Assembly: GCA_964016885.1 (NCBI GenBank) | Contig: OZ024743.1 | Span: 338,520,001 to 338,584,000 of the forward strand | Direction: 5' to 3' | Origin: Eledone cirrhosa | Lineage: Eukaryota | DNA length: 64,000 nt | Part shown: positions 14,517 through 35,934 of the stretch, piece after piece | Position numbering within the stretch: the first letter of the stretch is position 1 | How the letters are laid out: each line of letters begins with the position of its first letter | The notes under the pieces: generated by a model | What the model was told of the DNA's origin: nothing | Seen by the model: the letters and a program-made list of their open reading frames with translations, nothing else | Databases searched by the model: none | Position numbers and translations under genes: made by a program

Positions 14517-15627
14517 ATAAATGATTTAAACAGAACTTTGATTCATGTAATTTCTATATATATATATCAATCTATCTATCTCTCTATCTATCTTTCTTTC
14601 TTTCTTTCTTTCTTTCTTTCTTTCTTTCTTTCTTTCTTTCTTTCTTTCTTTCTTTCTTTCGTCTTTCTTTCTTTCTTTCTATTTATTTTTCTTTTTTTCT
14701 TTCTTTCTTCATTCTTCCTGTCTATCATGCTATCTGTCTTTCTCTCTTCCTTTCTCTCTATCTCGTTTTTCTTCTTTTTTTCATCTTCCTCTCCCTCCTT
14801 CCTATTTCTTTGTCTCACTTTTTAAAATCACCAGCACCATCATCACCACCACCACCATCATCATCATCATCATCATCACCATCACCATCATCATCATCAT
14901 CACCATCACCATCACCATCACCATCATCAGCACCACCATCACCATCATCATCAACATCATCATTATTCCACTCTGCCCCAATGCTGTATCAAATTTCGCA
15001 GAAGTCTGACACGAAATTACATTTTATATCTCAAGAAATGTTTCGTTTTTATGTTTTTTTTTAAATTTTATTTATGTATCTTTTTATTTACTTATTCAAA
15101 TTTTACCCCCTTCTGATAACATACATTACTTTTCGGCCATATTGCGTCCTCCTCACCTCCGCCACACACACACACACACACACACACATATATATATATA
15201 TATTTACACATATATATATATATATATACATACATACACACAGACACAGACACAGACACACACACACACACACACACACACACACACACACACACACACA
15301 CACATATATGTATATATATAAATATATATATATTTACATATATATATATATACATACATACACACAGACACAGACACACACACACACACACACATATATA
15401 TATATATATTTCTTTATTTGCCACTAGGGCACAAGAGAAAGGGGGGGGGGTTTACATAAAAGCGAGTAAAGAAAAAAAGGAATAACAATAAAAATGATAT
15501 AATAATAAAAAGTCCTCAAAAGGGAGGGGCGTGTTGGGGATTGCACATACCCCCGAAAAGTGTGCAACCCTTTTCCCGGGGGAATCCCAGAGAGGAGGCG
15601 CTCCCCCTTTCCTCTTCACTTCTTCAC

Positions 15628-18424
15628 CTACAGAACAATGTAGAGAGAAGGCCCATTTACACGAGCCATTCTCGCCTCTTTCACCCACCTTTCATAAAAC
15701 TGTCTGGGGCCAAGCACTTCTCTCTCCATCCTGATCCTTCTTCCGAAGTGGTATCGGAAGAAGTAAACCAGGTGTTGGCCAGAGAGAAAGTCACCCGACC
15801 TCAGACCTTTCAGGCGCGTCCACCACACAACCTCTTTCATCATGGCTATTACGCACAGAAAGACCGCCTCTGCTTCATTTCTGAAGGGAGGAGGCAGCTT
15901 GATGTTCACCACGGTCTCGGCGGCCAATCGAATCGGCGCCACACGCGACAGCAGTCGTTCGACGTAGCCCCACAGATCGGCAACGCCCGGTCAGTGTACC
16001 AGTGCGTTCGCAACGGTTTCCTCGTCGCGCACGCATCTGGGACAGATCTTTTTCGCGGGATCCCTGCCCGGCCGCCCGTGTCTGTAGAGCTTTTCTCGAA
16101 CGGACAGAGCCCCCCGGTAGCACTGCCAGGATTGCAGCTCGGTGAGCGAGACGAGCTGTGTGAAGGCTCGCCTCACAAACGGGGCCCACACCGGCTGACC
16201 GGTGAGGAATACCTGTAGATGTCGTAGCCTCAATGCGTGCCTACGCATCAACAGCCACGGCATACCCAGCCCTCCTTTCGAAGGGTGCTGGCAGCAGATG
16301 GATCTCCTCACCATGGGAGGCCGCTTCTTCCAGAGGAACTGGAAGAGCATGCGTTCCATGATGGTGAGCTTTTCCATAGGCCGAGACCGCTTTGTGCAAT
16401 CCCGGTTCCAGGGGTATGCCCCGCAGCAACTCCAACTTCCGCAGCGGTGGCTCGAGAGCCAATACGTACAGAAGAGAGGAGAGGGGGCACCCCTGCCTGA
16501 TGGACCGGGTGATTTGAAACGGCTCCGAGAGGTAGCCGTTTACTTTAACCCTAGAGCAGACGTTGCCACTGTGCATGGCAGAAATCCAGACCCTGAAAAC
16601 GGGTCCGAAGCCCGTCGCCGCTAGCACCGCATCCAGGTAACCATGGTCGACCCTATCGAACGCCTTAGATTGATCCAAGTTGATCAGGGCCCCACCAAAG
16701 CCGGGTTCGTTCCCAACCCTCTCTACGATGTATCGCATGAGGTGGAGGTTGTCGTGAATGGACCTGGACGGGATAGCGCATGTCTGCGCGTCTCCCACCA
16801 AGCCACCCACCACAAGCGCCAACCTCTTCGCTAACACCTTGGCCAAAATCTGTAACTCTGCATTCAGCAGAGTTATGGGCCTAAAGTTACTTAAGTCGTC
16901 CCCCTTGCTCTCGTCCTTCCTCACTAGCGTGACTACGCCCTTGGTCACAGAACAGGGAATTCTCCCGTTTTGTTGCCAGTTGCAATAGACAGCCTCGAGG
17001 AGTTCGGAGAACAAGACCGGCATAGCTAAATAAAGTTCGTATGGTAGACCATCGAGACCCGGAGATTTGCGTCTGCTGCATTGGCTGAGCGCATCCCCGA
17101 TTTCAGTGGCTGTGATTGGCCTTTCGCAGCACTCCGCTTCGCCGCTCGAAAGACGCGGTAGACCGTCGAGGTATGGACCGAAGTCCACATCCCCGTCCGG
17201 CCCACCACCCCCTCCGAAAAGTCGAGCAAAGTGCCTTTGAAAGGCCTCGCACATCCGCTCAGGTTCAAGGATCACCCGTCCATCCTGGTCTCGCAAAGAC
17301 CGAATGGTGGATTTAATCCCACTCTTGGCTTCTGTCACGCGGGCCCAGCTAACAGCTTTGGTCCCCTCGTTTCCTAAAGCACGTATTTTACTTCAGACAA
17401 CGCAGCCTTCGTGCTTCGCGTCAAAGAACTGGCTCAACGCCGTTCTCGACGCTAACACTCTGGCCACGTCTCCGCTCCTAATCGCCACTTCTAGTTTATC
17501 TGTCAACTCACTTTCCCTCCTATTTCTATTCGCCGCTAGTTCCTTACTGTAACCTATCAAACTTACTCTAATCTCTCTCTTTAGAGATACCCACCACCTG
17601 CTGTTGACGATCGCTCCCGTCAACCGCATCTTAACTAAGCTACTAATCCGGTTCCTGTAAGCTTCCTTTGCCGGCAAGGACAAGTTCATCTTCCAGTAAC
17701 CGGGACCCTGTCTATGCGTTCTATCAAGGTTGACCACGCAGGTCACTAATTTGTGATCTGAATAGCCAACCATGATCAATTCTGGACAACTAAATACGTC
17801 CCTATCCTTACTCCTAACCAAAAACCTATCTAGGTACGATCTAGATTGTCCACTGCGGTTTGCCCAGGTCCAGGTTGGCACAGTTGGAAAATCTAGTCGA
17901 AATCTATCGACCAGGTCGAATCGATCGAGTAACCCCTTGAGGCTGCTACACCCCCCTCTATCGGGACATGCCCCTGCATAGTCCCAACGCGCATCTAGGA
18001 TTCCATTCCAGTCCCCCACTAAAAGCAGGGAACGCGACGTTCCTAGAAAAGTCTCCAGACGCTGGAAGAAGTCGGCTCTTTCAGCCCCGAAGGGGGCATA
18101 AAGACCGACCAGTCTGAAAGCCCCGCCTTCACCGCCTCCGACGTCCAGCACCAGTAATCGACCCCCCGGGTCCGAGTGAACAATCTGTACGTCGAGAGCC
18201 AGACGTTTATCCAGCAGTACGGCAACCCCACCCCCGCCTCCGGGTTGACAGAGAGATGCGTGCATCTCAAAGTCATCGAAGGCGGGAGCCAGCTCTCGCA
18301 CGCTGCTGATCCGACTCTCGCAAACAACCATCACATCTATACTTCGTGACCTGAGGTCACTTAGAAGCTTTGCTTGCTTCCAAGCTGAGCCCAGGCCACG
18401 CGCATTCAAACAACCAACTCTCAA
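15628..18424 (-). pseudogene. Copy A ORF2 (APE endonuclease, RT, CCHC), disrupted
   Basis: CLNARGL, GDWN, SYLDRF, YSDH, SPGLDGLP, FRPITLLN, DQSKAFDRVDH, QGCPLS; deletion at YADD; CPRC..H..HC. Confidence 0.93.
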
Positions 18425-18429
18425 TTGAT

Positions 18430-35200: not shown

Positions 35201-35834
35201 TTTCTCTTCGAAAGTTATAAATTTTCTCCCTTTGTGGAGCATATCTCTTGCATTGGAGATTTTTTATGTGGTGTTGCTGTTGTTGTTGTTGTTATTATCG
35301 TTGTTAGCCTCGGTGTTGGAAATCTCAGTTCCTTGACGAGGTGAAACATTATGTGTAGATGTATCTGTGGGGTTGTTGATGTCTTTTTCATGTGTATGTA
35401 TGTTAATAGGTTTAATTTCTCTGTTTTCATGTGAGTTAGTGTTATTTTTCTCCGCTTCGACGGTAGAAATTGTACAATTTTCGAGTGGTAACATTTTTTC
35501 CTCTTTGTTGACAGTCGTATCTATGGCGACGTCCATAGTAGCAGAAGCAGATATAACGTTAATATCTGCTTCTTTACCTCTCTTTTCTCTGTCGACGTTC
35601 TCCAGCGTTCCCTTCGTGTTATTTATGTTTTATAGTTTGCAAAATTTGATATTTTAAAACAATTTTTAAATTAAATTTTCGCTCCTAAAGGGGCGAAAAA
35701 TGGGATTACCACCCAGCTGACAATTCAGCTTGGGGGTTAATCTACAAAATAATATGTTTTTTTCAAACAATTTGTTCTGTTTTTCGCATATAAATTTACA
35801 AAAAATCTTACCGGCGATGTTCCACGCGTCAGGC
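32211..35834 (-). mobile_element. Tx1-type copy F (both ends present; ORF1 tail, APE and RT N-terminus deleted)
   Basis: ORF1 knuckle CFRCGSTAHLKASC fused at ~34440 to RT region with AYADD; TATC-type repeats at both ends. Confidence 0.9.
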
Positions 35835-35934
35835 AGAAAGAGAGATAGATAGATAGATAGATAGAGATAGATAGATAGATACATAGATAGAGAGAGAGGG
35901 GGAGAGAAACATATAAAGGAAGAATCTACCTCCA

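Follow-up and report, generated by a model that had tools for sequence, protein, structure and literature searches.

A TATC-targeted, probably Tx1-clade retrotransposon family of Eledone cirrhosa, with close relatives at (ATT)n and at a minisatellite

A stretch of 64,000 nucleotides of Eledone cirrhosa DNA (GenBank assembly GCA_964016885.1, contig OZ024743.1, positions 338,520,001 to 338,584,000; hereafter the window) holds several copies of a retrotransposon that are bordered by TATC repeats. The locus raises the question of whether the repeat is the site at which the element inserts or a tail that the element brings along, and of how its copies come to stand head to tail. With a probability of roughly 85%, our answer is that an L1-group and likely Tx1-clade element inserts in one orientation at TATC, producing target-site duplications of 12-20 bp, and that its apurinic/apyrimidinic endonuclease (APE) likely cuts the GATA strand, priming reverse transcription at that site. 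We are nearly certain of the TATC specificity of the family.

TATC repeats at both ends of the element

We delimited the window copies by self-comparison and by mapping to intact copies. All six minus-strand copies (A-F) listed in the initial annotation were recovered, together with two plus-strand copies, G and H, and the (TATC)17 tract between them, which it had overlooked and which show the same arrangement on the opposite strand. The layout is as follows, with repeats written in the element sense (ORF, open reading frame; UTR, untranslated region).

15408-20662, minus strand: copy A, with a full-length 5′ end; 3′ UTR ending in AATAAA-GAAA; 3′ flank (TA)n
~18424-20455, minus strand: ORF1 of copy A, frameshifted, with a CCHC knuckle
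In copy A, minus strand: ORF2, with APE, reverse transcriptase and zf-RVT, one premature stop and two internal deletions
20663-20684, minus strand: (TATC)5 spacer between the 5′ end of A and the 3′ end of B
20685-22706, minus strand: copy B, the 3′ part of ORF2 and the 3′ UTR; internal deletion at 21926/21927; 5′ side fused to C
22707-26522, minus strand: copy C, 5′-truncated in ORF1; a 766-aa stretch of its ORF2 is open (23343-25643)
26523-26551, minus strand: (TATC)7 spacer between the 5′ truncation point of C and the 3′ end of D
26552-30116, minus strand: copy D, 5′-truncated at the ORF2 start; small internal deletion at 27242; 95.5% identical to G
30117-30204, minus strand: (TATC)22 spacer between the 5′ truncation point of D and the 3′ end of E
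30205-30802, minus strand: copy E, short and 5′-truncated
30803-30864, minus strand: (TATC)15 at the 5′ truncation point of E, with no element beyond it
~32193-32210, minus strand: degenerate TATC run at the 3′ end of F
32211-35840, minus strand: copy F, a separate insertion with a full-length 5′ head; ~2.1-kb internal deletion at 34442/34444
35841-35890, minus strand: degenerate TATC run at the 5′ end of F, with no element beyond it
59094-62793, plus strand: copy G, 5′-truncated; upstream, (TC)n and two TATC units
62795-62865, plus strand: (TATC)17 spacer between the 3′ end of G and H
62866-64000, plus strand: copy H, 5′-truncated, F-type, running off the window end; 93% identical to F

The GATA runs reported earlier at six junctions are all present (20663-20683, 26522-26551, 30117-30204, 30803-30864, ~32193-32210, and 35835-35895), each reading TATC in the element sense, and the two exceptions reported with them, the (TA)n flank of A and the B/C fusion, are both real. 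Head-to-tail stacking holds for A-E, which form one abutting array, but not for F, which lies ~1.3 kb of other DNA away from E. Pairwise identities among the window copies are 69-96%, and the subfamilies represented (A, B/C, D/G, E, and F/H) number at least five; copies A, B, D, and F carry internal deletions. Seven of the eight perfect TATC runs of at least three units listed in the window touch an element, two of them in the 5′ flank of F; the eighth, at 45086-45125, is free of elements.

Junctions across the genome (3.0 Gb searched) were collected with four 3′-end queries (from D, B, A, and F) and two 5′-head queries (from A and F), each supplying the best 30 of 40 scored loci. After four window copies and one locus lacking AATAAA were dropped, 115 3′ ends were kept. 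The element ends in AATAAA-(0-2 nt)-GAAA-NN without poly(A), and TATCT follows: among the 108 ends scored for their first five downstream bases, 98 read TATCT, two TCTCT, and one TTTCT. A TATC 8-mer in the sense orientation was present in 91 of the 115 3′ flanks (79%), and none carried it in antisense. Exact 3′ ends running into TATCTATC number 11,237 genome-wide for the commoner end motif and 1,842 for the second (13,079 altogether), counts that carry no ranking bias, and reversed-pattern controls gave 0 and 8. In the opposite orientation, the commoner motif followed by GATAGATA was found once. Orientation relative to the repeat strand, a check named by the initial annotation, is thus fixed (11,237 versus 1).

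The 5′ side was informative in 52 of the 115 copies, since the other 63 extended past the 1.5-kb flank. The truncation point carried a sense TATC 8-mer in 37 of the 52 (71%) and an antisense one in a single copy, and TATC was also present at 26 of the 40 truncation points that had no family member upstream. By comparison, the 8-mer occurred in 23 of 11,400 random 35-nt windows (0.2%), and 2,645 windows placed 0.6-1.4 kb off gave 50 sense and 11 antisense occurrences. The enrichment of TATC in 5′ flanks, the second check that had been named, is therefore seen genome-wide. Reading by eye, we recognized target-site duplications of 12-20 bp in 13 of the 52 truncated copies (L007, L028, L029, L062, L068, L069, L071, L076, L077, L085, L086, L093, and L226). 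Eleven of them start with TATCT and the other two, in L069 and L076, with a variant (TAT or ATCT), and none of the 13 copies has an extra repeat tail. Because the duplicated stretches begin in the repeat and continue into DNA that is degenerate or non-repeat, the repeat is the target and not a tail. With 52 truncated copies and 13 informative duplications, the signature of target-primed reverse transcription is present, and the duplications bear out the earlier proposal that each insertion leaves target on both sides.

The competing reading is that the element itself makes TATC, merely as a 3′ tail of the CR1/RTE type, that the TATC at 5′ ends is the tail of a neighbour, and that copies persist passively in repeats. 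Each 5′ end in an array does abut the 3′ repeat of the previous copy, and long TATC tracts are rare away from elements. No tract of at least three units was found in 20 evenly spaced 10-kb stretches of the genome (200 kb). In the first 20.6 Mb of contig C1, where 28 tracts of at least six units lie at ~22 places, 16 of the 28 touch a copy of our library, with orientations that match in every case; a further three lie next to a head recognized later, and one lies next to a likely head. A tail would not, however, account for the 26 TATC-bearing truncation points without an upstream neighbour or for duplications extending into flanking sequence, and no TATC tail is seen on copies that lie in TA, TC, or unique DNA. 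In the window, the (TATC)15 tract upstream of E has no element beyond it and is therefore target rather than a neighbour's tail. The target-site duplications largely refute this reading, which we regard as very improbable; the same data agree with the initial argument that a repeat found also at 5′ truncation points is more than a tail.

Full-length 5′ ends and array growth

Truncated and full-length copies differ in their 5′ junctions. The flanks of truncated copies vary, whereas those of full-length copies are fixed in phase, with ATCT before the head in 19/19 and 26/29 copies and TATT in 36/36 copies of an (ATT)n-targeting sister group described below. Among copies whose 3′ repeat is no longer than 13 nt, a scripted comparison showed that the non-repeat sequence beyond it was duplicated in 10 of 31 truncated copies versus 1 of 14 full-length copies. 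In L121 and L454, additional repeat units come after a duplication, and in L365 18 nt of ATT stand at a 5′ junction that arose from a 7-nt target. We consider it likely that full-length RNA starts in the upstream repeat and carries units in. The contrast parallels that of melanogaster-type R1A elements, in which full-length copies carry upstream target sequence, giving precise 5′ junctions, and truncated copies show ordinary duplications (Stage and Eickbush, PMC2718515). R1A differs in belonging to the R1 clade and in using a single site in 28S ribosomal DNA; here the carried sequence is itself repeat, so carry-in would add new target.

These observations are compatible with the following series of steps. 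A first nick would fall on the GATA strand opposite N^TATCTAT and a second 12-20 nt downstream. Cleavage within the downstream repeat would give the RNA a 3′ end that may anneal to the nicked primer, and this would account for the absence of poly(A). Full-length RNAs would begin in the repeat, a few units ahead of the element, for which R1A provides the precedent, and pairing of the cDNA end with the target would then fix the 5′ phase, with ATCT directly before the head, and add units. As each insertion would leave or add target on both sides, later copies of any subfamily could land adjacent, and arrays would grow head to tail.

Arrays, which the initial annotation had expected to keep growing, are also seen outside the window: a family member follows within 150 bp of the 3′ end on the same strand in 35 of the 115 copies and on the opposite strand in two. 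Site preference has been described as giving rise to tandem dimers (10.1101/158386). An array could also be built if one copy were duplicated locally in tandem or through unequal crossing-over. Copies B and C, 93% identical, are fused at 22706/22707, where C lacks its last ~280 bp, and identical head-to-tail junctions occur elsewhere among the youngest copies (L370, L382, and L454). Yet A, B/C, D, E, and F are only 69-84% identical to each other and differ in where they are truncated, and other contigs contain 92-98% matches to every end used as a query. The subfamily divergence refutes local duplication for A-E as a whole, and as an account of the array we rate it as extremely improbable, although it may explain the B/C fusion.

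Three side observations concern the 5′ part of the element. Short copies L181, L022, and L087 have an inverted piece beside a TATC tract, resembling 5′ inversion by twin priming. Loci L031-L060, L191-L220, and L427-L465 combine similar ORF2s with at least three different 5′ heads across subfamilies, which, judged from sequence, looks like a sign of 5′ UTR replacement. Finally, A-type ORF2 has no start ATG; instead, ATA overlaps the ORF1 stop TAG (window 18424-18440, minus strand; L429 ~2490-2510) in all 28 loci read, including intact young copies. This suggests that ORF2 translation may begin by AUG-independent reinitiation or by frameshifting. In the C, ATT, and minisatellite types, ORF2 starts with ATG.

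Sister targets and the choice of target

No unrelated long interspersed nuclear element (LINE) that could serve as a control was found in the window, and a sister group was used instead. Of 40 stretches taken from a protein search (L357-L396, e.g., L361, L382, and L386; a further locus is L147), 39 had a long ORF2. The 38 intact ORF2 copies average 99.8% identity. (ATT)n flanks all 36 copies that include a head on either side, several copies stand head to tail, and the corresponding junction pattern occurs 14,817 times genome-wide. Since this group, with a 3′ end near-identical to that of the TATC family, is flanked by ATT, the link to TATC is specific to the family.

A third target emerged from 20 3′ ends outside the TATC and ATT lists, of which 13 share one insertion site, ACTC(T)TA.., in a 69-72 bp minisatellite, and the rest run into degenerate TATC, TC, or TA-rich DNA. 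This minisatellite junction pattern is found 349 times in the genome. Loci of the subfamily are L470-L475 and L486-L488 (contig C1, ~4.229-4.260 Mb), with six 3′ ends 5.7-7.1 kb apart, and in three of three copies the full-length 5′ junction falls at a constant position, 7 nt ahead of the 3′ register. On contigs C1-C3, the listed minisatellite junctions cluster near contig ends. ORF2 identity is 80% between the TATC and minisatellite elements, 68% between TATC and ATT, and 70-71% between minisatellite and ATT. In trees, the TATC subfamilies and the minisatellite subfamily form a clade (98/100) with the latter nested inside, and a quick tree rejected a TATC-only clade (approximately unbiased test, p-AU 0.029). 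A partial Argonauta protein, which fills less than half of the columns and has a long branch, is placed in this clade. The lineage appears to have switched targets, with (ATT)n used by the sister group and a fixed minisatellite site by one subfamily that lies inside the TATC clade. One tree suggested that the ATT target was ancestral, an idea that was dropped since the ATT rows can form one clade.

What sets the target? The predicted endonuclease structure, built from a 62-row alignment (pLDDT 93), matches human L1 endonuclease best (TM-score 0.81), ahead of cellular AP endonucleases, and the sequence retains the N, E, GD.N, D, and DH positions conserved in the endonuclease alignment. Between the TATC and ATT subfamilies, 22 endonuclease positions differ consistently, one of them in a presumed β-hairpin loop, which we take to be that loop from its T...S anchors, after PMC1950540. 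That study reports that the Tx1L endonuclease alone is sequence-specific in vitro and that loop grafts between distant endonucleases failed to transfer specificity. In addition, only some of the nicked sites are used for integration, and RNA-DNA pairing is named there as a possible further filter after nicking (Repanas 2007, PMC1950540). The endonuclease is probably the main determinant of target choice.

A less probable alternative, to which we give no more than minor weight, is that RNA-DNA pairing mainly sets the target: nicking would be loose, only primers that pair with repeat units at the RNA 3′ end would start synthesis, and a new target would be inherited from the landing site of a master copy. 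AATAAA lies just 6-8 nt before the junction, which would place 3′ processing in the repeat downstream, and the copies have no poly(A). Compatible with the same alternative are the nesting of the minisatellite subfamily in the TATC clade, the 73-80% identity of its endonuclease to those of the TATC elements, and the TCTAT that its site shares at +3..+7. Against it, and besides the in vitro specificity and the 22 positions, L062, L086, L093, and L226 inserted at sites with 5-7 matching bases yet keep the exact register and have no extra 3′ units. Endonuclease targeting and RNA-DNA pairing can both contribute.

Classification, coding capacity, and significance

The element is an L1-group APE-type retrotransposon lacking long terminal repeats (non-LTR): its ORF2 pieces match Pfam Exo_endo_phos (the APE), RVT_1, and zf-RVT, the best PDB sequence match of ORF2 is human L1 ORF2p (E 9e-45), and the endonuclease model agrees. 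The Tx1-clade label is quite probably correct. When 18 distant ORF2s were compared with copy C, the best two, at 352 bits, were L273 and L277, metagenome loci that end in U2 small nuclear RNA (snRNA) at the Keno/Utopia site (PMC4640811), and human L1 reached 156 bits; as bit scores and not a phylogenetic test, these values favour Tx1 over L1 proper. Their U2 site, found at only these two of 20 metagenome loci scanned, would make L273 and L277 Keno-like. The TATC family differs from them in its flanks, which are microsatellite rather than U2 snRNA genes; they in turn have an A-rich tail, are ~30% identical to it, and do not group with it in an unresolved tree. Their 3′ junction continues as G-TATCT (L277 5840-5870, L273 4745-4775), the pentamer with which duplications start here, by chance, convergence, or old preference.

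Tx1-clade ORF1 proteins have a CCHC knuckle, unlike vertebrate L1 ORF1. The match of copy A ORF1 to zf-CCHC is weak (E 0.0029, under the curated cut-off), and intact ORF1s have no Pfam match, yet a C-x2-C-x4-H-x4-C motif is visible. In distant metagenome relatives (L279-L307, 15 loci scanned positive), ORF1 contains a GDSL esterase, mostly with CCHC; the esterase was absent from two intact octopod ORF1s scanned.

Several features indicate recent mobility. Among 117 listed matches to the copy A endonuclease, ~89 by eye count have a 1,166-aa open frame. In L429, to which copy A is 93-98% identical across aligned parts, both ORF1 and ORF2 are open. In the youngest subfamily (20 copies checked), the 3′ end is followed by TATCT in 20/20 and ATCT precedes the head in all 19 heads found. 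The family is real, strongly TATC-specific, and recently active. Among named sequences, the nearest homologs come from Argonauta hians (64-67% across the aligned region) and a cuttlefish (47%). Related 3′ ends, their flanks not shown, are present in sequencing runs of four other organisms. Two metagenome scans for the TATC target elsewhere gave, first, no match and, second, 56 mostly distant loci (best segment 23-50% identity), none with a TATC tract.

Microsatellite-specific Tx1 elements as such are known already, and what appears to be new is TATC as the target unit. Kibi in (TC)n and Koshi in (TTC)n are Tx1-clade elements of teleost fish, and crocodilian Tx1 families occupy (TTCC)n/(TTTC)n (PMC4494074, PMC3812793). 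Like these, the present family is an APE-type L1-group element with microsatellite on both sides. Compared by target description, it differs in its unit, which is not pure pyrimidine (TATCT in 98/108, not (TC)n or (TTC)n), its octopod host, its >13,000 junctions, and its close relatives at (ATT)n and a minisatellite. Keno targets U2, and further Tx1 families lie in satellites and transposons, with more targets listed in Fig. 3 and the supplements of PMC4494074; a Tx1 family is called target-specific if one sequence type makes up >20% of flanks (PMC4494074), and here TATC accounts for 79% at 3′ flanks and for 71% at truncation points. The microsatellite targets listed for non-LTR elements are ACAY, AC, TC, TTC, and TAA, with Dong (R4 clade) in (TAA)n and Waldo/Mino (R1 clade) in ACAY/AC (PMC3812793). 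Dong shares its repeat class with our ATT sister group, but both it and Waldo/Mino belong to other clades, and since Dong-R4 has a restriction-like endonuclease (PMC4640811), the shared target would be convergence. For Octopus vulgaris, 80 L1-Tx1 consensus families, 13 of them recently active, are reported (PMC13282606), and octopus LINEs appear with no target given in the relevant parts of PMC13282606 and PMC8967140 (both including L1-Tx1) and of PMC9115989; the TATC, ATT, and minisatellite elements are likely among such families. No TATC/GATA-specific non-LTR element was found in searches of published papers, and it is possible, if rather doubtful, that a Repbase or Dfam entry already notes the TATC target.

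Several points count against the conclusions drawn above. The loci are the closest relatives of the queries rather than a random draw, and the D query contained 7 repeat bases. The 3′ ends of L009, L019, L023, L065, L114, L126, L131, L223, and copy A lie in (TA)n, (TC)n, or unique DNA, so that TATC specificity is strong, not absolute. The TATC 8-mer is missing from 15 of the 52 truncation junctions; some of these show a degenerate duplication starting with TATCT, and the remaining ones may be later rearrangements. If the element end overlaps the repeat, the nick can be placed only to within a few bases. Finally, the trees do not fix the root between the ATT and TATC groups, and the quick wider tree gave no resolution and contained no L1-clade row and no named Tx1, Kibi, Koshi, or Keno sequences.

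Other features of the window are a long near-perfect inverted repeat (45330-45570) beside the (GATA)10 tract that no element touches; three occurrences of a short palindromic repeat in (TA)n context, resembling miniature inverted-repeat transposable elements (30949-31221, 48101-48329, and 55301-55617); weak GIY-YIG matches at 42560-43378 (minus strand, E 2e-4) and 12504-12986 (plus strand, E 2e-3), likely fragments of Penelope-like elements; a faint zf-RVT match at 38830-39426 (minus strand, E 0.03), perhaps the end of another LINE; and tandem repeats with 40-bp and 139-bp units at 4790-5268 and 7500-7884.

With >28,000 exact junctions over three targets, the family is a large force in the Eledone cirrhosa genome, and the tie of long GATA/TATC tracts to element ends bears on the origin of microsatellites and on marker design in cephalopods. 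Most broadly, and with about even chances in our estimate, these elements form an undescribed octopod Tx1-type radiation with (TATC)n, (ATT)n, and minisatellite targets, intact copies, and ORF2s 68-80% identical; it would breed its own target by duplicating and carrying in units, would account for a large share of long TATC tracts on big chromosomes, and may switch targets through seeding by RNA ends rather than by the endonuclease alone. How microsatellite-specific APE retrotransposons choose and change targets is described as poorly understood (PMC3812793). With three closely related elements that use different targets and exist as natural, intact copies, direct swaps of domains and RNA ends become feasible, so that the three-target series, if correct, would be a ready-made set for finding what determines APE target choice. 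An integrase specific for a short motif may also be of modest interest for RNA-templated gene insertion.

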